A stretch of 64,000 nucleotides of DNA from positions 6,936-70,935 of the forward strand of contig RDOA01000007.1 of assembly GCA_011364925.1 (NCBI GenBank), written 5' to 3'. Shown here one piece after another: positions 9,261-36,063 of this stretch. The stretch is from Promethearchaeota archaeon (lineage in GTDB: Archaea > Asgardarchaeota > Lokiarchaeia > Sigyniarchaeales > SOKP01). Made by a program: the position numbers and the translations under genes. The notes under the pieces were generated by a model that saw only the letters and a list, made by a program, of their open reading frames with translations, made no database searches and was not told the DNA's origin. The number at the start of each line of letters is the position of its first letter. The first letter of the stretch is position 1.

Positions 9261-10163
9261 ATGCTAAATTTTGAACAAGAACAAAAAGTATTAGAAATTG
9301 GATCGGTACGAATTGGAGGGCAGCCAGGAGAAAACCCAGTTGTTATGATTGCTACCGTTTTCTATACAAATCACGCTGCCTTATTAGACGAAAAAAAAGG
9401 GGAAATTGATCGAGATCTTGTTGAACAAGAATTAAACGAATATTCAGAAATCATAGAGGAAACTGGAATGCAAGGGATAGTTGATATAGTAGGAGGTTAT
9501 CCAGAAGCTTTACTGAAAGAATGTGAATTTGTTGCTGATGTTATCGAATATCCGTTTTTAGTAGATGGCTTAAACGACTCTTCGCGCATTCCAGCTATGG
9601 AAGGGTTAAAAGAAGTGGGACTCTTAGATCGAGCTATTTTAAACAGTATAGATGAATCTACAACAGAGGAGAGCTTAATCAAATTAAAGGAAATTGGAGT
9701 AAAATCCACGGTTTTATTAACTTTTGGAAATAAATATATATTTCCTCAACAGAAAATCGATTTCCTAAAGAATGTATTAATTCCTAAAGCGCAAAAAGCC
9801 AATATTGAAAATATTATTGTTGACACTGCCGTGTTAGATTTACCTTCTATCGGAATCAATGCCGAAACAGCAAGGAGAGTAAAAGCAGAGTTAGGGATCC
9901 CCGTAGGATTTGCTCCTGCTAATGCTATTTATGGTTGGAATTTTGTTAAAAAGTATGGAGATAAAGCTAGATGTGGTGGAATTGCTTCCTTAATGGCTTA
10001 TTGTGTCAATGCTGGAAGTGATTTTGTGCTTTTTGGACCTATTAAATTTTCAAAATGCGTTATACCAGCTATCTCTCTTATCTCAGGCATAAATTCATAC
10101 TATCGAAGGCGAATTTTACGAAAACCTATTTCCGATCGAACCCCATTGAAGCAGATCTTTTAA
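9261..10163 (+). CDS. mtrH: MtrH-family (tetrahydromethanopterin S-methyltransferase subunit H-like) methyltransferase
   Basis: FEQEQKVLEIGSVRIGGQPGENPVVMIATVFY...YPFLVDGLNDSSRIPAMEGLKEVGLLDRAILNSI follows the MtrH N-terminal pattern closely. Confidence 0.8.
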   Translation: MLNFEQEQKVLEIGSVRIGGQPGENPVVMIATVFYTNHAALLDEKKGEIDRDLVEQELNEYSEIIEETGMQGIVDIVGGYPEALLKECEFVADVIEYPFLVDGLNDSSRIPAMEGLKEVGLLDRAILNSIDESTTEESLIKLKEIGVKSTVLLTFGNKYIFPQQKIDFLKNVLIPKAQKANIENIIVDTAVLDLPSIGINAETARRVKAELGIPVGFAPANAIYGWNFVKKYGDKARCGGIASLMAYCVNAGSDFVLFGPIKFSKCVIPAISLISGINSYYRRRILRKPISDRTPLKQIF

Positions 10164-11671
10164 GATATGTATCTAATTAACAAATCTTGTGTTCGATCCA
10201 AGAATTCTTTTACATGTTGATTAATGCTTTCTTTTTTGCTTTCATCGTCTAACAAAAAAAGGATGTACATATCGTAATTTAACACAAGTATTTTCTTGAA
10301 TAAAATAATTGAATCTGAAACTCTAAATGTCGCTTCATCTTTCTCGGTAGCCTTAAAGTTAGAAAATATTTTAAATAACATTGTAAACTGTGGAGCAACT
10401 ACTTCAAAAACATTCAATAATTCTTCAGAATTTTGCATTTCAGTAATTTGCAGTGCTTTAGAATTAAACGATTCTGCTAGCACTAATCCATCACTGCTTA
10501 GGAGTAGGATTAGAGAAGCGTCTGTGGCTAATGAAAATTCTCCAAGGTTATGTTCAACTAAATCTCTATTTGGACTAAGTTTTGCAATACCAGAAGAAAA
10601 GGCTCGCAAAATTGAAAAGATTTGAAAGAGGCTTGTGATAAAAATCTCAGGAGCTCTTTCTGGGGTCAATTTAATTAATTCACTTGTTATGTTTTTAATG
10701 TTCGCTTTGATTTCTTCTGATTCGAGTATGTCAGAATCCCCCTTCGATAATATGTAAATTATTGGTGTGTTTTGTTCCAAATCTGCTAATGCAAGTTTCA
10801 TTTTTTTTAGATACTCTATGCTCTCTTCAAAACGTTTTTTATCGCGGATGTCAATAAAATAGAAAAGCAGGTCTGCTTCGAATAGGTAAATTTGAGCTTT
10901 ATTAAGATATCGTTCGTGATATATTTTTTGTCCACCTAAGTCCCAAATAAATATGGTTGCTCCCAGTGCCTCTATTGAACTTACATCTGCTCCTCTTGTT
11001 GGGCTTAACCCTATCAATTTTGAAAATTTTCTGTCAATAGAAAGTAAAAAACTTGTTTTTCCGCTATTATCTAATCCTGCAAATAAGATTTTCATTTTTC
11101 TCTGAGATGAAATCGGTGTGGAAGGCGTCTTTTCAATGGTTATAATTTTTTTCACTAGATTTCTAAAATCTGATTCTACTTTTTTTTGTTGTGGAATCTG
11201 TTTAGTCAGTTTTTTATCAAAATTAGAGAAGAAATCAATAATGATGTTTTTGAGTCGATTAATATTATTGTAAAGAAAACTCCTTTTTTTCTCGTCAATT
11301 AATATACAAAAGGCACTTGCTGCGGGAATCTCTGTCGTTTCAGTTTCGAAGAAGTGGAAAAATGTGAGAGAAGTTAGTTTAAGATCGGGAAAGGGTATAA
11401 TCCCAAAGTATTGGTAATTTTTTAATACTTCGACCTCTTTATTGTAAACAGCCCCATCTCCTATTAAGAGAGAAATGTTTTTTATTGCGATTTGAGTATA
11501 ATCCCTTAGGGAAATTGCAAGAAGATCTCTCTCTTTTTCCTCTTGACTCATGCTTTCTAACTCTTCGACCTCAAATGGTTGAGGAAACATATAAACTGGT
11601 TGAGGTCCCAGTTTATCGAAGGCGGAAAAGACCATTCCTTTAATGATTGACGATTCGATTAGCTTGTCCAT
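10160..11671 (-). CDS. Three-domain protein: longin-like (uDENN-type) N-domain, Arf/Rag-like small GTPase, C-terminal Roadblock-like domain
   Basis: Longin-like part: VFSAFDKLGPQPVYMFP...IAIKNISLLIGD...YFGIIPFPDLKLTSLTFFHFF. G1 is KILFAGLDNSGKTS, G2 is SPTRG, G3 is IWDLGGQ, and G4 is atypical (ILSKGD). The tail SLILLLSSDGLVLAESF...IILFKKILVLNYDMYILFLL is Roadblock-like. Paralog of 17255..18667. Confidence 0.8.
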   Translation of the reverse strand: MDKLIESSIIKGMVFSAFDKLGPQPVYMFPQPFEVEELESMSQEEKERDLLAISLRDYTQIAIKNISLLIGDGAVYNKEVEVLKNYQYFGIIPFPDLKLTSLTFFHFFETETTEIPAASAFCILIDEKKRSFLYNNINRLKNIIIDFFSNFDKKLTKQIPQQKKVESDFRNLVKKIITIEKTPSTPISSQRKMKILFAGLDNSGKTSFLLSIDRKFSKLIGLSPTRGADVSSIEALGATIFIWDLGGQKIYHERYLNKAQIYLFEADLLFYFIDIRDKKRFEESIEYLKKMKLALADLEQNTPIIYILSKGDSDILESEEIKANIKNITSELIKLTPERAPEIFITSLFQIFSILRAFSSGIAKLSPNRDLVEHNLGEFSLATDASLILLLSSDGLVLAESFNSKALQITEMQNSEELLNVFEVVAPQFTMLFKIFSNFKATEKDEATFRVSDSIILFKKILVLNYDMYILFLLDDESKKESINQHVKEFLDRTQDLLIRYIS

Positions 11672-13504: not shown

Positions 13505-14473
13505 TTGACAATTCAATATTTAACGAAAGATGAGAAAGACAAGAAGAAAGTTGTTTCAGCGTCAAAGTTGCTCTTTACAGGCTTAGACAACGCCGGAAAG
13601 ACGACAATTATCTACGGATTACAACGAGAATTCTCAAAAATTGCTTTTCTTAAGCCAACACGGGGAGCTCAAAGAAGAATATTTGAATTCATGGGTAAAG
13701 AAATCGCAGAGTGGGATTTAGGAGGACAAGTTTCGTATAGAATTTCCTATTTAAAAAATCCAGGAAAATACTTCGATGACACGGAAATCGCAATTTATGT
13801 GATCGATGTTCAGAATCGAGTGAGACTACCCGAGGCAATAAGTTATCTCAAAGATGTTGTAGCGACATTCAAGAAACTTGAGATTGCGCCCCCGATCTAT
13901 GTTTTTCTCCATAAATACGATCCTGCATTAAGAAGAAATGCTTTAAATGAAATGAAGAATCTTGAAGTAGAAATTAAAGATAAAATAAAACAAACCATAG
14001 ATTATAAACAAATTTTTTATTACAATACAAGCATTTACGAGCTTTCTTCAATTATAAAAGCTATATCAGAGATCCTATTAAGTTTATATTCAAAATCTGA
14101 ATTAATTGAAAAAACTATCGTGGAATTTGGTAAAAAGACATATTCAGATGGAATCGTCCTGCTTGACGATAATTCGTTGATTATCGGTAGTTATTATAAG
14201 GATGAAGAAACTAAGAATCTATTGTCTGCAAGCACGCCTTATTTTCTAACTCTTAACGATAGTTTTATTTTTACCGAGGTTCAACCCAGTCGTCAAGAAG
14301 AGGAAAACCATATGATTGTTCAAAGATTTGGAAGAAATTTCTTATTTAAACAACTGACTTTAAAAGAAGGAATTAACCCATATTACATTCTCATGCTTAA
14401 ACAAGACACTAATATTAATAAAGACGATATAAATTCCTTTTCTAACCTATTAAAAGAGATCTTATACAGTTAA
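13505..14473 (+). CDS. Rag/Gtr-like small GTPase (Arf-like P-loop, HKxD G4) with C-terminal Roadblock-like domain
   Basis: G1 is LLFTGLDNAGKTT, G2 is KPTRG, G3 is EWDLGGQ, followed by IYVIDVQN. G4 is VFLHKYDP (HKxD, as in Rag/Gtr1). The C-terminal ~130 aa (GIVLLDDNSLIIGSYY...YYILMLKQD) are Roadblock-like. TTG start. Confidence 0.75.
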   Translation: MTIQYLTKDEKDKKKVVSASKLLFTGLDNAGKTTIIYGLQREFSKIAFLKPTRGAQRRIFEFMGKEIAEWDLGGQVSYRISYLKNPGKYFDDTEIAIYVIDVQNRVRLPEAISYLKDVVATFKKLEIAPPIYVFLHKYDPALRRNALNEMKNLEVEIKDKIKQTIDYKQIFYYNTSIYELSSIIKAISEILLSLYSKSELIEKTIVEFGKKTYSDGIVLLDDNSLIIGSYYKDEETKNLLSASTPYFLTLNDSFIFTEVQPSRQEEENHMIVQRFGRNFLFKQLTLKEGINPYYILMLKQDTNINKDDINSFSNLLKEILYS

Positions 14474-17254: not shown

Positions 17255-18667
17255 ATGACAAAACAAAATAACGGAATCATCAAATCAATCGTATTGAGCG
17301 TGTTTGATGACGATGGTCCAACCCCTAAAATCTATTGGCCAGAGACAATGGACGAGTCTTCAAGATTATTGATTGCAATGAAGACTATCTCTCTTTTGAT
17401 GGGAGATACTGTCTATCAAAATGGAGAATCTACCGAGGATGTTAATTACTTTGGAATCCTACCTTTTCCCGATTTAAAGTTAAATGGATTGACTTACTTT
17501 TTTTTAATCCTAGATCCAACAGCTAGAGGTAACGCTAAAGCAGCGACCGTAACTATCTTAATTGATGAAGACGATAAAATTTTTTTTTATGAAAATATGA
17601 AATACCTCCGGGTTATAATAGATAGCGCGGCATCAAAAATTCAAACGAATAAGAATCTTGATGAACTACGTACTATCATGAATGAACTAAAGGAAGAGCT
17701 TTTTGATTTTACAAGCGAGATGAAAGATCCTTTTTCTTTTAAGCGACAAATTAAAATTTTAATGACTGGACTGGATCGTGCTGGGAAAACGAGTTTTCTT
17801 CACGCAGTTAAGAAACGATATTCTGAAATTATAAAAACATTACCTACAAAAGGGATTGCGAGAAGCGAAGAAAAAATTTTCGAAGAACAAAATTCTACGA
17901 TTTCAGTGTGGGATCTTGGCGGTCAAAAGGCCTATCGAGAAAAGTTCCTTGAGCAAAGAAAGGTCTATTTATACAACATAGATTTGCTCTTTTACTTCAT
18001 AGATGTTCAAGATTCCTCAAGAATTGAGGAGTCAATGGAATTATTTGTTAAAGTTATTGACTCACTGGTAGAATTAGAGGAGTTTCCTCCAATCGTTGTT
18101 TGTTTAAACAAATGCGATCCAGATATACAAGAAAAAGAGGATATCAAGAACAATATTACAGGTTTAATTGAAAGAATTAATAAATTCTCAGAAAGATTCT
18201 TTGTAAAAATTTTTGAAACATCTATTTTCGATGGATTTTCGTTAATCTCTGCTTATTCATATGGATTATCACAATTATCTCCTAACAGAGAGCTATTCGA
18301 AAATCAATTAAAGCATTTCGCGAAAAAAATCACCTCAGATGCGATCCTTTTGTTAAATGAAAAGGGAATTATCCTTTCAAACTTCTCAAATATCGATATC
18401 TCTGAGAAGCTTTTCGAAATATCTGCACCTCATTTTCAAACTTTATACAAAACATTTAAGGAATTTAAGTTACTCAAGCAAGATTTTCTAATTTCCTCAG
18501 GAATTACCGATGAATCAAAAAAGATTATCTTTAAGAGGATTACGGTTGATAAACACAACTTATACTTGTTACTTTTTATGGAGAGAGATTTGAATCTAGA
18601 TAAAATAGAAAGGCATTTACCCAAACTCTCTAAAAACCTTAATGAATTAATTCAAACATACATTTAA
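17255..18667 (+). CDS. Three-domain protein: longin-like N-domain, Arf-like small GTPase, Roadblock-like C-domain (paralog of 10160..11671)
   Basis: Longin-like part: IVLSVFDDDGPTPKIYWP...IAMKTISLLMGD...YFGILPFPDLKLNGLTYFFLI. G1 is ILMTGLDRAGKTS, G2 is LPTKG, G3 is VWDLGGQ, G4 is CLNKCDP. The tail is AILLLNEKGIILSNFS...IIFKRITVDKHNLYLLLFM. Confidence 0.8.
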   Translation: MTKQNNGIIKSIVLSVFDDDGPTPKIYWPETMDESSRLLIAMKTISLLMGDTVYQNGESTEDVNYFGILPFPDLKLNGLTYFFLILDPTARGNAKAATVTILIDEDDKIFFYENMKYLRVIIDSAASKIQTNKNLDELRTIMNELKEELFDFTSEMKDPFSFKRQIKILMTGLDRAGKTSFLHAVKKRYSEIIKTLPTKGIARSEEKIFEEQNSTISVWDLGGQKAYREKFLEQRKVYLYNIDLLFYFIDVQDSSRIEESMELFVKVIDSLVELEEFPPIVVCLNKCDPDIQEKEDIKNNITGLIERINKFSERFFVKIFETSIFDGFSLISAYSYGLSQLSPNRELFENQLKHFAKKITSDAILLLNEKGIILSNFSNIDISEKLFEISAPHFQTLYKTFKEFKLLKQDFLISSGITDESKKIIFKRITVDKHNLYLLLFMERDLNLDKIERHLPKLSKNLNELIQTYI

Positions 18668-19941: not shown

Positions 19942-20161
19942 AGAAATCTTTTTTTAAATTTTTTTACATAGAGTATAATAATCTCTCTTTTTATTTGTTC
20001 TGATAATTTTAGAAAAAAAGAACATTATTAAGACAGAATTTTTATTATGTAAGTAATTAAAATTTGCAGCAGTACAACGGGTAAGGACTATTATCTACAA
20101 GATATTTCTCATTGATAGTGAAAATGGCATCTCTCTTTTAGAAGCCACATTTAAAGAATTA

Positions 20162-20731
20162 GTGGGAGACATTAAAGTTAAAGGGGTGATTCCTGGATTT
20201 TTTAAAGAGATCAACGAAATCATAGATAAAATACAAGAGGCTATGGTAAAAGGTGGCTATAAAGAAGATTTAACCCGAATTGTAGAATCTGAAAATTCGA
20301 CTATCGTTATTATCCACCATCCACCTTCAAGAATATTATTTTGCTCAATTTCTGATCCCGATGACGATGTAGATAAAACTATCGAAGTAATCCGTAAAAT
20401 TTCAAGCCGTTTCTGGAAAAAGCATGAAGCGGAAGTTAAATTATTTAGAAGTACTTCGCAAAAGTCTCGTTTTCAGACGATAATTACTGATATAGAAAAT
20501 TTATGCCAAGGCGGTAAGATAGCTGAAATATTCCCAAAATTGTTAGTAGTAAAGAGTGTTTTAGAGAAAATCAAAAGCATGGGAATGATTAACGAAGATG
20601 ATTTCCAAGTCGCCTTAAAATGCTCTGGTGAAGCGTCCCCGTTAAAAATCGCAAGAATATTATCTAAATCTCGCAATGATGTAAATAATGTACTTAAAAA
20701 GTTAGAGGAATTAGATATAGTATCTTTTTAA
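20162..20731 (+). CDS. Soluble longin-like + C-terminal winged-helix protein; the coding sequence very likely starts upstream (open frame from 20057)
   Basis: The track ORF starts at GTG 20162. The in-frame upstream sequence reads ...IIYKIFLIDSENGISLLEATFKEL, which gives typical longin beta1-beta2 strands. These are followed by FFKEINEIIDKI, STIVIIHHPPSRILFCSIS and a wHTH (SPLKIARILSKSRNDVNNVLKKLEELDIV). Confidence 0.6.
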   Translation: MGDIKVKGVIPGFFKEINEIIDKIQEAMVKGGYKEDLTRIVESENSTIVIIHHPPSRILFCSISDPDDDVDKTIEVIRKISSRFWKKHEAEVKLFRSTSQKSRFQTIITDIENLCQGGKIAEIFPKLLVVKSVLEKIKSMGMINEDDFQVALKCSGEASPLKIARILSKSRNDVNNVLKKLEELDIVSF

Positions 20732-20827: not shown

Positions 20828-21439
20828 TTGATTATGGAAAATAATAAAAATATCGAATCAATAGTAATATCTCCGGCAAGAGATGCTCATTTACGAAAAG
20901 GAAAGGGATTTTCGTTATTAGAGATAAAAGAAGCCGGTAAAACTGTAGAACTGCTAAGAAATCTGAATATGAATATCGATTATCTTAGAAAGTCTAAACA
21001 TGAAGCAAACATTGAAACCCTTAAAAAACTAAAACCAGAAATAAAGAAAATTAAAAAGAAAAAACCATATGAATTCAAAGAAAAGAAAAGAACTCCTTTC
21101 ATTCCTGAAGAAGAAAAAGTAAAAAAGAAAACTGTTAAAGCTAAGAAAGTCACTCCCGTAGCCAAAGCTGTTAAAAAAGCACCACCTATAAAGAAAGAAA
21201 AAGTCAAAAAAGAACTAAAACCAGAGAAAGAAACTATACCTTCGGCTGAAAAGACAAAATTAACTATGCTATCCGGCTTAGGGCCTACAACCGCTAAGAA
21301 ATTTGAAGAACTTGGCGTAAATAGCGTAGAAGATCTTGTCAATGAAGACCCGGCAGAACTTGCAACATTAATTAAAGGAGTATCTGAAGAACGAATAACA
21401 AACTGGATCCAAGAGTGCAAAGAAATACTGAATAAATAG
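20828..21439 (+). CDS. Ribosomal protein eL13-like N-domain fused to a Lys-rich linker and a C-terminal helix-hairpin-helix module
   Basis: RKGKGFSLLEIKEAGKTVELLRNLNMNIDYLRKSKHEANIETLKKL matches the eL13 core pattern (GRGFSL.ELK.AG...D.RR...N...L). C-terminus: LSGLGPTTAKKFEELGVNSVEDLVNEDPAELA (HhH). Confidence 0.5.
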   Translation: MIMENNKNIESIVISPARDAHLRKGKGFSLLEIKEAGKTVELLRNLNMNIDYLRKSKHEANIETLKKLKPEIKKIKKKKPYEFKEKKRTPFIPEEEKVKKKTVKAKKVTPVAKAVKKAPPIKKEKVKKELKPEKETIPSAEKTKLTMLSGLGPTTAKKFEELGVNSVEDLVNEDPAELATLIKGVSEERITNWIQECKEILNK

Positions 21440-25056: not shown

Positions 25057-28000
25057 TTATTTTGTTGATGGTACAATAACTTTCTTTTTTATTAGGCTTT
25101 CGATACCTTCGATTACTATATCTTTATTCTTTTCGTGAATCAGCTCAAAGATGGTCTCTAAGTTAAATTCTTTCTTGCTTTTCGCAATCGAATAAATGAC
25201 GTTCAAGATACGAGTCTCCATTGAGTTCAGTTCTCCTTCTTTGCGGACCTTTGCTATATAATCAGCGCTATTTATCACAAATGGTTCCTTTAAGTAAAGT
25301 TCAATGTAATTATTTATAACAGGCGGAAATAGGTCTTCAAATTCGTGAATGGCGCCGTCCCAATTACCGATTTGTTCTGATAATTCTAGCATCGCTCCTA
25401 AAGATAGATCAGAGATCAAACTCTTCAATCGGTCTGAAGCCCGCTCAGTTAAAATAAAAATTATCCGTAATTCTTGCCGATCACAGATTAAACAATAGAA
25501 ATACTTGAAATCGAGCTCTAAGATGGTACGAGTTCCGTCTTCTTCGTCTATATTTACTAAATCGCCGCTCTCTCCTCTTTTTCCAACCATTTCTTCTCCG
25601 ACGGTGATGATAGCCTGTATGAATCCCGCAAAAATCTCCTTTTTTTGTTTCTCTAAAATGGAATAACTCTTAGTATAAAGTGGAATTCCACTATCCTTAT
25701 GAATCGCAACAATAGCCTGAATGTTTTCAATATCTTTAAACCTCTGTGTCCTTGATAGCAAATCTGCTTCTCTCCTTCTCCTTCTTGGTAATATAACATA
25801 CGATCTAATACTCAAAGCCCCCAAAATAGCTATAACAGATATCGAGATTATTGTAATCAAGATTAACAAAAATGGGTTTGCTTCGCTTGGAGGTGGTGGA
25901 TTTACAATATTAAATTGGTAGATATGACTCTGAGGTTCATATCCAGGAGCTGAAAATTCGAAGAAAAGTTGATATGTTCCTGTACTATCAAGAAACACTG
26001 TATTAATTAGAATACTATAAGTTCCTGGCGTTGTTTCTGTGACGCTATAATACATTGGATTAGAAATATTAACTGCTACTGTGGCGTCAGTTATACCCTC
26101 CTCACTAATTTTTGAGTAGTAAAAGAATGTGATAGTGCTATTCTGGTTGATGATAATCGAAGAATCAGAACCTAATCTTTGTAAAACGGTATCTTCACCT
26201 AAATTAATCTCTAAAATTAATGTACTATTCTCAAATCCTATTTTATAAGACGAAATGATAATAGTATATAATCCTAAAGAACCCAAATCTGAAGTGTCCA
26301 ATATTGCGTCGTATATGCCTAATCCAACCTCGACCAGGTACCTTGTACCGCTTGTCCAATTAAATGATAAAATTGCATTTGATATTGATTCATTATTCTC
26401 TGTATCGCGAAGATATATTCTTAACGGTAAAATGTCACCTACAACACCACCCGTTCGATTGTCTGATTTTGCGTCATCTGGACGTAATAATTTAATATAA
26501 GAATCATGTCTTATTACAAAATTAGAGTCGATTCCTCCTACAGAAGTGCCGTTTCCCCAAAATATTTTAAAATTATATATTCCTCCTGTTGAATTCTGAG
26601 CTGCGATATTGAAATTTGAGAATACAACTGTACCATTCGTCATAGGTATTGCGCTATCTTCAAACCAAAGGTCCCCCTCTGGACTATATATGGTTAAATT
26701 TGCTATAGTTTGTTCGAGTCCTGGTGGTATTTCATTGGTTTTATTAATTTGTGTTTTGATCTGGGCTATATCACCTGTTTGGAATTCTGAAACCCCCCAT
26801 TGACCATTCCTTGAAATTTTTACATTTTCTTCTTGGATGAAATTAGGAGATGTAGCTTTGAAAGACCACCAACCAGAGTATAGGGCGTTTGTTTTATTGA
26901 TCTTTAAAAAGGATTCACCAATATTTCCATTCTCAAAAGGACGAGAAAGAAGCGTTGGATCTAACGCATATAATATTTGCCAATTCGAAGGTTTGCTTAT
27001 GATAAACTCAAAATCTGAGTACTGTGAAGGCATAAAGAAGTTATGCGTAAAGTACCAATACACAGTTCCGTTTTCTAAGATTTCATACGAGGTTCCTTCA
27101 AGTAGAGTTTGCCCTATCCGCGAATATGCTTCGTGATATCCATATAAGTAGGTATCTAATTCAAACGAAAGCGAAGGTGAACTTGTATTTACCGTAAGAA
27201 TGACTGGATTAACAGTCCAAGTCCCCGTTAAGTTTAAATCAGAACTACCCCATTCATTTCCCTGATTTAAAGAATACCCATCAATGGTAAGATTTATATC
27301 ACTTTGGCTAGAGTTTGCGAGAGTTGTAAGCTCTAAAGACAAGTTATCAAACCAGAAAATTTGCTGATGCAGTTCGTCAAATCCAGAATAACTTATTGAC
27401 GCACCGCTCATTATTCCAAGCGATATTCTGAACTCTTGATCATTCTTAATATCTTCAAAAATGTTCGAGGTATTTAACCATAAATCTAGATTAATACTCC
27501 CAGTACTCAACCATGTTCGTCTTCCCCCATATACTACGATATCACGAATGCCCTTAGAATAAATAATTTGATCATTGATAGCACAATACATAAAATTTTC
27601 GTTCGTTGACATAGCTGATTCTGCATAATAATCAAAACTTATATATCCATCTATTACTTGACCACGTGGGATGGTTATGTTTTGATAAATTTCTGAAAAA
27701 TCGTTTTCGTAATATGTGGAACCAAAGTATCCAGTTCCAGTTCTATATGGTTCTCCTACTAAACTAACATACATTGCTGTTTCATTATCTATACTATTCG
27801 AACCATAATTATCAACTCCAGTAGCACTATTATTTCCCCAAAGGTCGTAACTATCATAATATTCTGAACCATCATGAGTATATTCGTAATAATCTATATC
27901 ATAGCCCCACCATTGAATTGAACCATCTGAATCCATCGTAATTTTTAGATGGTTAGTTTTAATCCAGGGACTAAAAAAAGCAGGTTTATTACCGGTATCA

Positions 28001-28632
28001 GTATATTGTAAAACATTACTCTCGTCGTAAAAACAGACTATATCCCAATCTGTTTCTATCTCAAATCTACTAAAATGAACTCGTATTAACGATGCGTTAT
28101 TTTGAATTATTTCGCTGTGAATGTTTGAGGGATTTGATGGGTCGTGGTTGAGATCTGCAGTGTAGTTATGTCGAGGCGGAGAAGTGTCTGGTATATTTGA
28201 TAAAGTTACATAGACTCTGTAAACATCAAGTTCGGAGAAATCTCTGTTTCTTACCCATTCTCTCGTATCTTGAATATTATTGATCTGAGTTGATATTTTC
28301 GATACTTTCCAATCGTGAACATCGTCAAGATAATAATTTAAATTGAGTTCTGCTTGATTATCTAATGATACATCTTGACTATCAACATATAGATTTCCAT
28401 AATCGGTTATATTTAGCGGAACTTCACTACCCTCAAATGCAACAGAATCTGGATCTGATAGTGTTGGACTTTGAAAGCGGTCAATTAAATCTTTATTTAT
28501 CGCTTGTAAATTCTTATTCGATTGTGGAACGAAAAAGCTACTTGAAATAATTATTACAAATAGAATCATTAGAGATGTAATCCTTAGAATTAAGCTTCTT
28601 TTTGTATGTTCGAAGTGTGAAAAAATTTTCAT
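25057..28632 (-). CDS. Single-pass surface receptor-like protein: N-terminal anchor/signal, ~890-aa sequon-rich ectodomain with CUB-like module, internal TM, cytoplasmic longin-like + winged-helix tail
   Basis: N-terminal TM: LILRITSLMILFVIIISSSFFV. The ectodomain has many N-x-S/T sequons. The CUB-like stretch is SLIRVHFSRFEIETDWDIVCFYDES...NHLKITMDSDGSIQWWGYDIDYY. The internal TM is FLLILITIISISVIAILGALSI, followed by RSYVILPRRRRRE. The tail reads IQAIVAIHKDSGIPLYTKSY...FAGFIQAIITVGEEM...TILELDFKYFYCLICDRQELRIIFILTE...METRILNVIYSIAKSKKEFNLETIFELI. Confidence 0.7.
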   Translation of the reverse strand: MKIFSHFEHTKRSLILRITSLMILFVIIISSSFFVPQSNKNLQAINKDLIDRFQSPTLSDPDSVAFEGSEVPLNITDYGNLYVDSQDVSLDNQAELNLNYYLDDVHDWKVSKISTQINNIQDTREWVRNRDFSELDVYRVYVTLSNIPDTSPPRHNYTADLNHDPSNPSNIHSEIIQNNASLIRVHFSRFEIETDWDIVCFYDESNVLQYTDTGNKPAFFSPWIKTNHLKITMDSDGSIQWWGYDIDYYEYTHDGSEYYDSYDLWGNNSATGVDNYGSNSIDNETAMYVSLVGEPYRTGTGYFGSTYYENDFSEIYQNITIPRGQVIDGYISFDYYAESAMSTNENFMYCAINDQIIYSKGIRDIVVYGGRRTWLSTGSINLDLWLNTSNIFEDIKNDQEFRISLGIMSGASISYSGFDELHQQIFWFDNLSLELTTLANSSQSDINLTIDGYSLNQGNEWGSSDLNLTGTWTVNPVILTVNTSSPSLSFELDTYLYGYHEAYSRIGQTLLEGTSYEILENGTVYWYFTHNFFMPSQYSDFEFIISKPSNWQILYALDPTLLSRPFENGNIGESFLKINKTNALYSGWWSFKATSPNFIQEENVKISRNGQWGVSEFQTGDIAQIKTQINKTNEIPPGLEQTIANLTIYSPEGDLWFEDSAIPMTNGTVVFSNFNIAAQNSTGGIYNFKIFWGNGTSVGGIDSNFVIRHDSYIKLLRPDDAKSDNRTGGVVGDILPLRIYLRDTENNESISNAILSFNWTSGTRYLVEVGLGIYDAILDTSDLGSLGLYTIIISSYKIGFENSTLILEINLGEDTVLQRLGSDSSIIINQNSTITFFYYSKISEEGITDATVAVNISNPMYYSVTETTPGTYSILINTVFLDSTGTYQLFFEFSAPGYEPQSHIYQFNIVNPPPPSEANPFLLILITIISISVIAILGALSIRSYVILPRRRRREADLLSRTQRFKDIENIQAIVAIHKDSGIPLYTKSYSILEKQKKEIFAGFIQAIITVGEEMVGKRGESGDLVNIDEEDGTRTILELDFKYFYCLICDRQELRIIFILTERASDRLKSLISDLSLGAMLELSEQIGNWDGAIHEFEDLFPPVINNYIELYLKEPFVINSADYIAKVRKEGELNSMETRILNVIYSIAKSKKEFNLETIFELIHEKNKDIVIEGIESLIKKKVIVPSTK

Positions 28633-31651: not shown

Positions 31652-32695
31652 ATGAGAAAGTTAATTGATGCGGTAATTTACACGGATATTCACGATGAAT
31701 TAGGGCCAGATCCTATTCATTGGGCGCCTCCAGATTTACCTGAATCAATAAGGATGTTAGTGGGAATTAAAACAATGACCTTGTTAACGGGAGACCAAGG
31801 AACTGTGCCTAATTCCTTATTAATCATTCCATTTCCTTCTTTAAAACTAAAAGGACTAATAAGATACATAGAAAGAGAGGATAGCAGCAAACGGGGTGGT
31901 TTTGCGCGATCAGCTATAACGTTCTTATTCAAAGAAGCCGATGATGTAATATTTTACAAGTATATGAGCTTTCTTAAAGCTCCATTTGATGAAACCGCAA
32001 GAAGGATTATCGAACTTGAGAATAATGAGGTAGAAAAAGAAAAAGTCTTTGAAGAAATCAGCTACTTAAGAGATAGTGTAGGTCAATTATTAGATGATTT
32101 CAGAGCTAAAGAAATTTCCTTCCCATCTGCTAAAGAATTTCCCGAAAGAATTATAAGAGGGGATAAGATTGTTGATTATAGATTCAAGCTCGTTGTAGTA
32201 GGTGATCCAGGTGTAGGTAAAACTTCAACAATTTTACGCTTTACCGATAATGCATTTTTAAGGACATACGTTCCTACTTTAGGAGTTAGTATTACCGAGA
32301 AAATCTTTCAAATCGATGAGAAAGCTGTAGAAGCAATCTTGTGGGACATTGCGGGTCAGAATAAGTTTCAAACGATGAGGAGGCACTTCTATCAAGGAGC
32401 CGAGGCAATCTTACTTATTTTTGACTTAACAAATCGAATCTCTTTTAACAGTATTAAAAATTGGTACGAAGATATTATGAAAAATATGGAAAAGCATCAT
32501 CACCAAATGACTGGCTATATTTTCGGAAATAAAAATGATTTGATTGATGTGCGTAAAGTTAAATTGGTTGAAGCGTTAGCATTAGCTAAAGAATTAAACT
32601 TAAAATACATTGAAACTTCTGCTATGACTGGAAGAAACGTGGAATACGCTTTTTACGACATGGCAGAAACTGTAATAAAATTAAGAATAGAATAA
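31652..32695 (+). CDS. Longin-like N-domain fused to a Rab/Ras-like small GTPase
   Basis: N-domain: VIYTDIHDELGPDPIHWAPP...LVGIKTMTLLTGD...LLIIPFPSLKLKGLIRYI, the same family as in 10160 and 17255. G1 is KLVVVGDPGVGKTS, G2 is YVPTLGV, G3 is LWDIAGQNKF, G4 is FGNKNDL, G5 is ETSAMTG. Confidence 0.9.
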   Translation: MRKLIDAVIYTDIHDELGPDPIHWAPPDLPESIRMLVGIKTMTLLTGDQGTVPNSLLIIPFPSLKLKGLIRYIEREDSSKRGGFARSAITFLFKEADDVIFYKYMSFLKAPFDETARRIIELENNEVEKEKVFEEISYLRDSVGQLLDDFRAKEISFPSAKEFPERIIRGDKIVDYRFKLVVVGDPGVGKTSTILRFTDNAFLRTYVPTLGVSITEKIFQIDEKAVEAILWDIAGQNKFQTMRRHFYQGAEAILLIFDLTNRISFNSIKNWYEDIMKNMEKHHHQMTGYIFGNKNDLIDVRKVKLVEALALAKELNLKYIETSAMTGRNVEYAFYDMAETVIKLRIE

Positions 32696-34534: not shown

Positions 34535-35257
34535 ATGTTGCTTCAAAGTATTCTTATTCAGAGAATTACTCTTGTCTTGATGTTCCAGGTATGGCCAATT
34601 TTTTTTTTATCGTACCTTGCTTACAAATTGTTAAAGAGAGCAAGAAATAGGGCCACATATTCTCTGAGTACCGTTTTTATTTTTATCGCATTTGCGTATG
34701 CGTTAATCTCATTGTCAGCATTTCTTTTTTTTCTACCTATGTCTTATTTTTTGTATATTGTTGGATTGTATTTCTTCGTTTTGGGCAACTGTTTTTTTGT
34801 CATTTTTAGTTGGGTGTTGGTAAGACTTGAGGAAAAATCTCCCTATTGGATGTATTCGTTGTGGGTCACATTTTATGGAGTACTCTCTTCATATATTATA
34901 TTATTAGGATATTTCTTTGACGGGATTAGATATGATTCTAGTACGGGATGGATTCCGACTTATAACTGGTTTTTTTTAGCGTTAAGTTGGTTAATTTTCT
35001 CGGTTTTTATAGTAATTCCTCAGATTCCTCTTTCAATTAGGTTAATAAAAGTTTTTGAAGGTAAAGTTTTAAAAAAGAGAATATATTGGTATTTAATTTG
35101 CGTATTTTTTGAATTTAGTCTGGCATTTGCTGCATTTCTCTATAACACGTGGGTAGATAATCAAATTTATAGGTTCGTTTATGTGTTTATTTTTCCCCCT
35201 TTAGGTTCGATCGGAGCATATCTAATTTACCGGAGTTTTATCAAAGAATTAGACTAG
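34535..35257 (+). CDS. Seven-TM membrane protein, tandem paralog 1
   Basis: Seven hydrophobic segments. Collinear and about half identical by eye with 35344..36063. Shared blocks: QVWPIF, LAYK.LKR..NR.TY, CFF.I.SW.LVRL, GIRYD.ST.WIPTY, LYNTW.DNQIYR. Confidence 0.65.
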   Translation: MLLQSILIQRITLVLMFQVWPIFFLSYLAYKLLKRARNRATYSLSTVFIFIAFAYALISLSAFLFFLPMSYFLYIVGLYFFVLGNCFFVIFSWVLVRLEEKSPYWMYSLWVTFYGVLSSYIILLGYFFDGIRYDSSTGWIPTYNWFFLALSWLIFSVFIVIPQIPLSIRLIKVFEGKVLKKRIYWYLICVFFEFSLAFAAFLYNTWVDNQIYRFVYVFIFPPLGSIGAYLIYRSFIKELD

Positions 35258-35343: not shown

Positions 35344-36063
35344 ATGCTTCTTCAAGATGCTCTTACTCAAAGAATAATTATTGTTTTAATTGTTCAAGTT
35401 TGGCCAATTTTTTATGGGTCAATTTTAGCTTATAAAATATTAAAACGTAGAAAAAATCGGTCGACCTATACACTTGCTACCCCTTTTATTTTAAATTCCA
35501 TAACATATTTCTTAGCTACACTTTCAATCCTTTTTCTAAATACACCCTTCGCATACATCTTATATATAACTGGAATATATTTTTACGCATACTGCCATTG
35601 TTTTTTCATTATTTTAAGTTGGATTTTAGTAAGACTAGATGACCAAGCTCCCTTTTGGAAATTCATCTTAATTGTTTCTTTTTATGGAATTATCTCAACT
35701 TACGTTTTTTGGATTGGATTTTATTTTAAAGGGATACGCTATGATGCGAGTACAACATGGATACCTACTTATAGTCTGTTTTTTCTCCTCTTCAGTTGGA
35801 GCTTTTTAGTAATTTTTATACTTATACCCCAAATCTATTTCTCATTTAAATTAAAAAAAATATTTGAAGGTGCAACATTAAGGCGTAGAATTAACATGTA
35901 TTTAGTTAGTTTTTATTTAGAATTTCTTGTAGTCTTTTCAGTATTTCTATATAATACTTGGATAGACAACCAGATTTACCGAATATTTTATCTTGTAATA
36001 ATGCCAGCAACTTCAACCATTGCCGCCTTTTTAGTCTATAAAGGGTTTGGTAAAAATCTATAA
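35344..36063 (+). CDS. Seven-TM membrane protein, tandem paralog 2
   Basis: See 34535..35257. Confidence 0.65.
   Translation: MLLQDALTQRIIIVLIVQVWPIFYGSILAYKILKRRKNRSTYTLATPFILNSITYFLATLSILFLNTPFAYILYITGIYFYAYCHCFFIILSWILVRLDDQAPFWKFILIVSFYGIISTYVFWIGFYFKGIRYDASTTWIPTYSLFFLLFSWSFLVIFILIPQIYFSFKLKKIFEGATLRRRINMYLVSFYLEFLVVFSVFLYNTWIDNQIYRIFYLVIMPATSTIAAFLVYKGFGKNL

Follow-up and report, generated by a model that had tools for sequence, protein, structure and literature searches.

Dimers of longin and Roadblock domains act as platforms for GTPases (Levine 2013, PMC3747258; Tran 2024, PMC10933270). Asgard archaea encode dozens of small GTPases and well over 100 longin/Roadblock families, and gene order is seldom a guide to which regulator belongs to which GTPase (PMC10933270). 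Asgard longin and Roadblock proteins, including fusions with GTPases, are already known (PMC10933270), and Asgard genomes hold dozens of Roadblock/longin-type domains, some of them GTPase-fused (Tran 2024, PMC10933270). In the longins that belong to GTPase-activating proteins (GAPs), namely FLCN, NPRL2 and SMCR8, a GP motif precedes β2 and a catalytic arginine finger lies beside it (PMC12290439). Here we describe a gene at 25057..28632 (minus strand) in a stretch of 64,000 nucleotides from a Promethearchaeota archaeon (Lokiarchaeia; contig RDOA01000007.1, positions 6,936 to 70,935), hereafter the window, to which all coordinates refer. It encodes a predicted type I single-pass membrane glycoprotein of 1191 aa, called the receptor below for brevity, the cytoplasmic tail of which is predicted to combine a domain of the longin/Roadblock superfamily with a winged-helix-like domain. 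The protein very probably represents a family with a common build, in which a variable β-sandwich ectodomain is followed by one transmembrane (TM) helix and a constant cytoplasmic module of ~235 aa.

The surface protein and its two-domain tail

The open reading frame (ORF) starts with ATG and ends with a stop codon at 25057-25059. Since a frame of 1191 codons is open at a GC content of 33% and has homologues over its full length, P0166 (65% identity) and P0168 (58%), it is not a chance frame. A Kyte-Doolittle scan revealed exactly two hydrophobic segments: residues 13-36 (28525..28596, minus strand, as are all features of this gene), a candidate signal peptide or signal anchor, and residues 919-945 (25798..25878), the predicted TM helix. 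The latter is directly followed by P-RRRRR-E, in which the arginines (residues 950-954; 25771..25785) form a stop-transfer or positive-inside stretch; this P-R/K-rich stretch is conserved in the alignment of homologues. The ectodomain, residues 37-918 (25879..28524), contains 25 N-x-S/T sequons versus 13.7 expected from its composition, and the tail of 237 aa contains none. The positive-inside rule is the established basis for orienting TM proteins; together with the two hydrophobic segments, the arginines after the second one and the restriction of sequons to the ectodomain, it indicates type I topology. Thus, as read from the sequence, the layout is that of a surface protein, with a signal or anchor, a glycosylated ectodomain of ~880 aa, a single TM helix and a cytoplasmic tail. 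An initial annotation made from the DNA letters had described the same N-terminal anchor, long sequon-rich ectodomain and internal TM segment followed by RRRRRE, and hydropathy, translation and sequon counts agree with it. Receptor orthologues in several metagenome-assembled genomes (MAGs) are broken into two ORFs just before or within the TM/tail region, namely at L001:3-1648 (230 + 326 aa), L002:7281-10807 (858 + 268 aa) and L080:3-2780 (736 + 189 aa), for which frameshift, assembly error and pseudogenization are candidate causes.

The tail was numbered from the residue directly after RRRRR and modeled with AlphaFold2 on an alignment of 26 homologous sequences (predicted local distance difference test, pLDDT, 79; predicted template modeling score, pTM, 0.73). 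In the model, with secondary structure assigned by DSSP, residues 1-130 (25381..25770) form α1 (2-16), the β1-β2 pair (17-24 and 30-35), α2 (44-63), β3-β5 (81-87, 92-98 and 101-107) and α3 (113-129). This domain is followed by short helices (131-135 and 141-155) and then by helix 183-196, a β-residue at 202, helices 204-210 and 213-228 and strand 232-234. In a Foldseek search of the PDB, all 50 matches listed come from entries with longin/Roadblock-fold components, with E-values from 4e-4 to 6e-3, probabilities of 0.98-1.00 and, for most single-domain targets, a target-normalized template modeling score of ~0.5-0.6. They include LAMTOR3/MP1, LAMTOR2/p14, dynein LC7, Ego3, sigma-adaptins, zeta-COP, TRAPP subunits, Sec22b, Mon1-Ccz1 and the Roadblock protein of Thorarchaeota (7f8m). 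Roadblock (E 4e-4) and longin (E 1e-3) matches score alike, and helices flank the core on both sides, the first of them (2-16) preceding β1 and ending in the conserved D13/N16. The domain is therefore assigned to the superfamily, with the Roadblock and longin subtypes not separated. At the level of fold, the modeled domain is a member of the longin/Roadblock superfamily, for which ‘longin-like’ is acceptable wording. The longin-like start of the tail had been proposed in the initial annotation, and the modeled elements match the segments named there.

Sequence comparison gave a different picture from that of the fold. Neither the whole protein nor the tail matched any family in Pfam or NCBIfam, a PDB sequence-profile search with the tail alignment returned no match, and Pfam Robl_LC7 matched one of 32 family members with an E-value of 0.005, below its curated threshold. 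Of the checks suggested earlier, Pfam and PDB profile searches left the tail without a significant longin/Roadblock match, and agreement came from AlphaFold2 and Foldseek. Conservation was analyzed over 93 diverse modules, in which D13, N16, S27, G28, G49, F50, Q52, A53, I54, E85, F91, D97, R102, S112, G139, F202 and L226 are conserved (G28 and A53 in 100% and R102 in 92% of the modules). Judged by strand order, G28 in the β1-β2 loop and R102 at the start of β5 would lie at the same end of the sheet and outline a candidate functional site there. A helical linker, tail residues 131-182 (25225..25380), carries a conserved W/F-x-G motif and connects the longin-like domain to the C-terminal one; its pLDDT is 59-68 when it is modeled without the N-terminal domain.

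The last part of the tail, residues 183-237 (25060..25224), is predicted to adopt the order H1, short β, H2, H3, β. When the C-terminal 107 residues were modeled separately on 44 diverse sequences, the final 55 residues reached pLDDT >90 with the order H-β-H-H-β. A Foldseek search with this model returned nothing significant (best E 0.65), which is usual for domains this small; the better-aligned among these matches are mostly proteins containing winged helices, i.e. Rio2, ORC/Cdc6, DnaD-N, LexA, MarR-type proteins and RiPP recognition elements (RRE). Likewise, the sub-threshold Pfam matches over the 44 members are all to winged-helix families (DnaD_N four times, Rio2_N and DsrD three times each and RPA_C twice, along with RuvB_C, Rpc34 and TBPIP), and among PDB sequences the winged-helix protein DsvD matches best (E 0.08). 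TrmB, MarR and OmpR families did not match the tail. The winged-helix-like character of the C-terminal domain, another proposal of the initial annotation, is thus supported, though short of proven: the topology and the match lists stand, and a significant family match was not obtained. Over the 44 members, net charge averages -2 for the turn plus H3 and -1 for the whole domain, which makes the putative recognition helix acidic; its region has conserved E/N/D and hydrophobic residues and no conserved basic residue, and this argues against DNA binding by the tail winged helix.

The ectodomain is predicted to be β-rich and, in the copy at 25057..28632, has no Pfam match; its membrane-proximal repeats look like immunoglobulin (Ig)-like/β-sandwich units. 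A stretch at residues ~180-260 (27853..28095) had been called CUB-like. Searched alone, this segment matched Pfam CUB with E=0.068 and 13.9 bits, below the gathering cut-off of 21.4, and a second homologue gave no Pfam CUB match. A profile of nine sequences aligned it with CUB2 of MASP-2 at E~0.3, and the pattern R/H/F...D...G...PW...SD...GY is kept in nine homologues. What remains of the CUB assignment is a sub-threshold resemblance, to be treated as a lead only.

A family with one common module and a soluble relative

A profile search with the tail retrieved 628 clusters (representatives at 50% identity) at E<=1e-3, of which 270 at E<=1e-10. In the 150 best clusters, which were surveyed for architecture, the module is located at or near the C-terminus of proteins of ~250 to 2275 aa, and a hydrophobic or TM segment directly precedes it in essentially all complete members. 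The part before the TM segment ranges from almost nothing to ~1900 aa, and in some members up to 409 aa follow the module. Ectodomains of other members contain the Pfam domains Big_1, Big_3_5, MG4, Laminin_G_3 and PKD. All named sources of family members are Asgard MAGs (Promethearchaeota/Lokiarchaeia). No model in Pfam (2025) or NCBIfam (2026) covers the TM-plus-tail family. The literature searched yielded no description of a longin/Roadblock plus winged-helix module tethered by a TM helix behind variable ectodomains, the asCOG tables of Liu et al., which may list the family, being outside that search; to this extent, the earlier suggestion that a receptor-tethered longin module had not been described holds.

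Remote relatives that share only the longin/Roadblock-like part (profile positions ~50-190) and lack the winged helix are found in ORFs of 2062-3203 aa in L111, L114, L116 and L118 and in tandem ORFs of ~620 aa in L120, L125 and L126. By sequence, the longin/Roadblock-like domain thus appears to serve in further architectures, namely, giant proteins and tandem arrays.

Within the window, a soluble protein with a longin-like N-terminal domain and a TrmB-type winged helix-turn-helix (wHTH) domain is encoded 4.3 kb from the receptor gene, at 20090..20731 (plus strand), with an uncertain start codon. Its family is highly conserved in Asgard archaea (>424 matches), and 19 of 26 members have a TrmB match at the C-terminus. 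H2/H3 of the soluble paralogue are mildly basic. The best PDB sequence match of its N-terminal domain is the longin domain of VAMP7, a weak one (E 0.46). Direct comparison with the receptor tail was unproductive, whether by BLASTP (E 0.14) or by a narrow profile-profile comparison (probability 2.9%); a usable signal came only from the broad alignment of 93 tail sequences, which hhalign aligned with the soluble family over 104-124 columns of the longin-like domain with a probability of 58-63% and E-values of 7e-5 to 1e-4. In these alignments, G28 and R102 of the tail pair with G21 and R89, both conserved in the soluble family. The hhalign signal and the TrmB-type C-terminus together support the same two-module order in both proteins, as the initial annotation had proposed, in the form of a distant relationship; as far as the sequences indicate, the tail module and the 20090..20731 protein are supported as distant relatives.

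The start of the soluble gene has to be revised. Position 20057, given earlier as the start of the ORF, is a TTA right after a stop codon. The Met/Leu start of the orthologues aligns with an ATT at 20090, and no canonical start occurs before a GTG at 20162. The sequence suggests that the gene either uses a non-canonical start codon or has lost its start recently. A conserved N-terminus, IIYKIFLIDSENG..., invariant in homologues, is encoded upstream of this GTG (window 20057-20165, plus strand), and gene callers shorten the protein to 189 aa (P0046).

Gene neighbourhood and candidate partners of the tail

We tentatively propose, somewhat short of an even chance, that the receptor belongs to a receptor- or adhesin-like family with one common cytoplasmic docking module, for which a small GTPase is the leading candidate partner. 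The longin/Roadblock domain of the tail would probably dimerize, like others of its fold, and would form a flat platform for docking on the cytoplasmic side of the membrane, with the acidic winged helix probably serving as a protein-binding rather than DNA-binding unit. Many different ectodomains, for adhesion or sensing, would then feed into, or be anchored by, one shared cytoplasmic partner. The analogy with MglB, Ragulator, SRX and longin guanine nucleotide exchange factors (GEFs) and GAPs would make a small GTPase the most likely class of partner, and Rag/Arf-like Asgard GTPases with longin/Roadblock domains of their own could stack on the tail as the Rag C-terminal domains do on LAMTOR2/3. 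Taken by itself, the identification of the partner as a small GTPase is doubtful. A more specific version, in which hundreds of ectodomains converge on one output, a tethered longin/Roadblock platform that recruits or regulates Rag/Arf-like GTPases through an FLCN/NPRL2-like Gly/Arg GAP site, we consider unlikely.

Four small GTPases with extra domains are encoded within 15 kb of the receptor gene, in agreement with the four longin/Roadblock-fused GTPases counted in the initial annotation: two Gtr1/RagA-Arf-like GTPases (10160-11671, minus strand, and 13505-14473), a 470-aa protein consisting of an FLCN-like longin domain, a RagA/Arf-like GTPase domain and a C-terminal extension (17255..18667, plus strand), and a Ras/Rab-like GTPase (31652-32695, plus strand). 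The neighbouring GTPases additionally give weak matches to Pfam SRPRB, and the 470-aa GTPase a weak match to Pfam Folliculin. The first hairpin of three of the N-terminal extensions contains Gly-Pro (KLGPQP, DDGPTP and ELGPDP in 10160-11671, 17255-18667 and 31652-32695, respectively), a motif that FLCN/SMCR8/NPRL2-type GAP longins and some Asgard longins are reported to contain (PMC12290439).

Orthologues, defined by tail identity of at least 45%, were surveyed in 80 species-representative genomes. Across about 70 genomes of Lokiarchaeia, a block of >20 kb with genes on mixed strands is kept with them, in the order receptor, CxxCxxCC protein, ~540-aa unknown protein, methyltransferase, 163-aa unknown protein, L13e-HhH protein, soluble paralogue, (transglutaminase) and 470-aa GTPase; Ogg and PfkB are also kept upstream. 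The 470-aa GTPase, 4.4-8.2 kb and ~7 genes from the receptor orthologues, is the sole consistently syntenic GTPase, and the Rab-like gene at 31652 is syntenic in the closest relatives only. In a divergent lineage, the block between the receptor and the soluble paralogue has an inserted gene for a 337-aa Ras/Arf-type GTPase (L134:2830-3843 and L135:2220-3233). The L13e-HhH gene of the block (20828-21439, plus strand) encodes ribosomal protein L13e joined by a Lys-rich linker to a helix-hairpin-helix domain. Two very similar, unannotated multi-pass membrane proteins of 240 and 239 aa are encoded by tandem paralogous genes (34535-35257 and 35344-36063, plus strand).

Several results speak against a GTPase-docking receptor. 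Regarding the fold, no match of the tail to Pfam Robl_LC7 or Longin rises above the curated threshold, and when its N-terminal domain was compared by hhalign with the longin domains and C-terminal extensions of the four GTPases nearby, probabilities stayed <1%; as no significant profile link exists, a single predicted structure, with moderate Foldseek E-values, underlies the longin/Roadblock assignment. Moreover, the first modeled helix may be no more than an extension of the TM helix. Regarding the locus, the neighbourhood is general lineage synteny and no operon. Paralogues of the receptor elsewhere, at eight loci with 37-53% tail identity and other contexts, have one small GTPase in ~101 kb, and distant subfamilies, at 51 metagenome loci, have two in ~508 kb, one of them directly downstream in L112. 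Asgard genomes carry roughly one small GTPase per 50-70 kb, and against this approximate density there is no enrichment of GTPases near paralogues or distant members. Finally, longin/Roadblock domains also bind proteins other than GTPases, of which dynein intermediate chain, SNARE motifs and coat subunits are examples.

Because the whole block, housekeeping genes included, is syntenic and few GTPases lie near the paralogues, the neighbourhood was rejected as evidence for the function of the receptor. The earlier argument from nearby GTPases to receptor-GTPase coupling is thereby lost: away from this locus, homologues are almost never found near GTPase genes, a result that had been named in advance as speaking against coupling, and GTPase binding is not disproved by it. 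In MK-D1, GTPase genes are generally located outside operons with Roadblock or longin genes (Tran et al., PMC10933270). A recent origin of the tail by copying of a domain from a neighbouring gene was also rejected, given the absence of an hhalign signal; the Zn-ribbon-Roadblock protein, too, showed no signal with the N-terminal domain.

The surveyed relatives yielded some further observations on context. The one distant member with a small GTPase beside it is that in L112 (L112:1625-5700), where a Rab-like ORF of 355 aa that carries an N-terminal extension follows 750 nt downstream in the same orientation. In L031, L032, L036 and L038, a paralogous receptor with a similar ectodomain stands in a different neighbourhood without a GTPase, with a 552-aa protein starting MNSKFVCDTSVIF..., a Zn-ribbon protein and a 244-aa protein as conserved neighbours.

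By position, the soluble paralogue and the 470-aa GTPase are a better candidate regulator-GTPase pair than the receptor is with any GTPase. At each of the loci that extend far enough (56 of 56), all of one synteny group, the longin-RagA-like GTPase has the soluble paralogue as its co-directional neighbour. In eight loci the two genes are directly adjacent, with gaps of 120-340 nt, and in L136 (1-2081) the gap is 19 nt; elsewhere a transglutaminase gene on the opposite strand lies between them. This adjacency provides indirect support for a GTPase link of this type of module.

Three other explanations of the tail deserve consideration. The tail may tie an adhesin or surface anchor to a partner other than a GTPase, e.g. 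the cytoskeleton, ESCRT- or coat-like sorting factors or a membrane-domain scaffold, and so control placement of the surface protein (e.g. in protrusions) or its turnover; we regard this as possible and, on balance, unlikely. Indeed, dynein LC7, sigma-adaptins and longin SNAREs use the same fold without GTPase regulation, and in the Foldseek comparison LC7, sigma-adaptins, zeta-COP and Sec22b score level with the GTPase platforms. The ectodomains are of generic types (Ig-like, MG, laminin-G, PKD) and very variable in length, down to almost none, and the lack of GTPase enrichment beside paralogues fits here too. However, no candidate partner of this kind was found, the paralogous contexts have no conserved neighbour in common, and most characterized prokaryotic Roadblock proteins pair with GTPases (MglB; PMC10933270).

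If instead the domain did no more than dimerize or cluster the surface protein on the cytoplasmic side, with the winged helix as a stabilizer and no signaling partner, its invariably juxtamembrane position would be accounted for, and dimerization is the best-conserved property of the fold (PMC10933270, PMC3747258). Yet D13, N16, S27, G28, D97, R102 and S112, residues that are polar, charged or in loops, are conserved family-wide beyond the usual needs of a dimer interface, and a two-domain module of 235 aa in 628 clusters is large for dimerization alone, which makes this explanation quite improbable. Least probable of all is a membrane-tethered transcription factor, the winged helix of which would bind DNA either in the tethered state, like ToxR/CadC, or after proteolytic release, and thereby convert cues into transcription. 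The domain is wHTH-like, that of the soluble paralogue is TrmB-type with a mildly basic H2/H3, and archaea have no nuclear barrier. It is the acidic recognition helix that places this explanation low; in addition, no DNA-binding family matches significantly, and no protease or cleavage motif was identified.

A family in which the longin/Roadblock fold is joined to a TM helix behind a surface domain has a fixed membrane address, and the conserved soluble module of ~235 aa is a suitable bait for partner hunting, with G28 and R102 as residues to mutate. If a GTPase proved to be the partner, the family would be the first example, among the archaea most closely related to eukaryotes, of a eukaryote-like GTPase switch connected directly to the cell surface, and if the Gly/Arg site were that of a GAP-like platform, a prokaryotic forerunner of the membrane control exerted by Ragulator and GATOR on a GTPase switch, wired to the cell surface. 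Were the partner something else, the family, with its 628 clusters, would still be a major unannotated class of Asgard surface proteins.

Comparison with known longin and Roadblock systems

Ragulator (LAMTOR1-5) resembles the receptor in being a membrane-held platform of Roadblock type, and Rag/Arf-like GTPases with extra domains are abundant in the Asgard host genome too. There is no relationship to the tail at the level of sequence, and GTPase docking by the tail is putative. The anchors differ as well: Ragulator is held by the lipidated LAMTOR1, wrapped around soluble dimers, whereas the Asgard protein is anchored by its own TM helix behind a large ectodomain.

NPRL2 and NPRL3 of GATOR1 combine an N-terminal longin domain with C-terminal winged HTH repeats, and the predicted order of folds in the Asgard tail is the same (PMC3747258). 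The Asgard protein differs in having a single winged helix and in being membrane-tethered. As for NPRL2/FLCN, the tail has a conserved Gly in the β1-β2 loop and a conserved Arg just before or at the start of β5; as a lead only, G28 and R102 may occupy the positions of the GP motif and the Arg finger. Compared with GAP-type longins, the Pro of the tail is displaced by one residue (G-x-P) and conserved at 55%, and the proximity of Gly and Arg is deduced from strand order. Furthermore, chains of NPRL2, NPRL3, FLCN and SMCR8 are absent from the 50 Foldseek matches listed, though two of these, 7t3a_O and 8fw5_D, come from GATOR1-Rag assemblies, and the tail matches neither Pfam NPR2 nor Folliculin.

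MglB and other prokaryotic Roadblock proteins, including the Asgard one (7f8m, among the Foldseek matches), have the same fold as the modeled tail. MglB-type Roadblocks are small soluble dimers or GTPase fusions, whereas the Asgard domain is juxtamembrane in a giant surface protein, has an added winged helix and lies below the Robl_LC7 threshold. The longin SNAREs Sec22b, VAMP7 and Ykt6 are similar in presenting a membrane-anchored cytoplasmic longin domain, and are linked to the proteins described here by Sec22b, a Foldseek match of the tail, and by VAMP7, the weak best PDB match of the soluble paralogue. In these SNAREs, however, a SNARE motif lies between the longin domain and a C-terminal TM segment and there is no ectodomain, whereas in the Asgard protein the TM helix comes before the domain and there is no SNARE-type coiled coil after it, so that the tail does not qualify as a longin SNARE. 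The signal recognition particle receptor, in which the SRX domain of SR-alpha meets SR-beta, likewise brings a longin-like domain together with an Arf-like GTPase at the membrane, a likeness at the level of fold class. There, the GTPase carries the TM segment and the longin-like domain is soluble; in the Asgard protein the arrangement is the opposite, with the longin-like domain itself tethered to the membrane.

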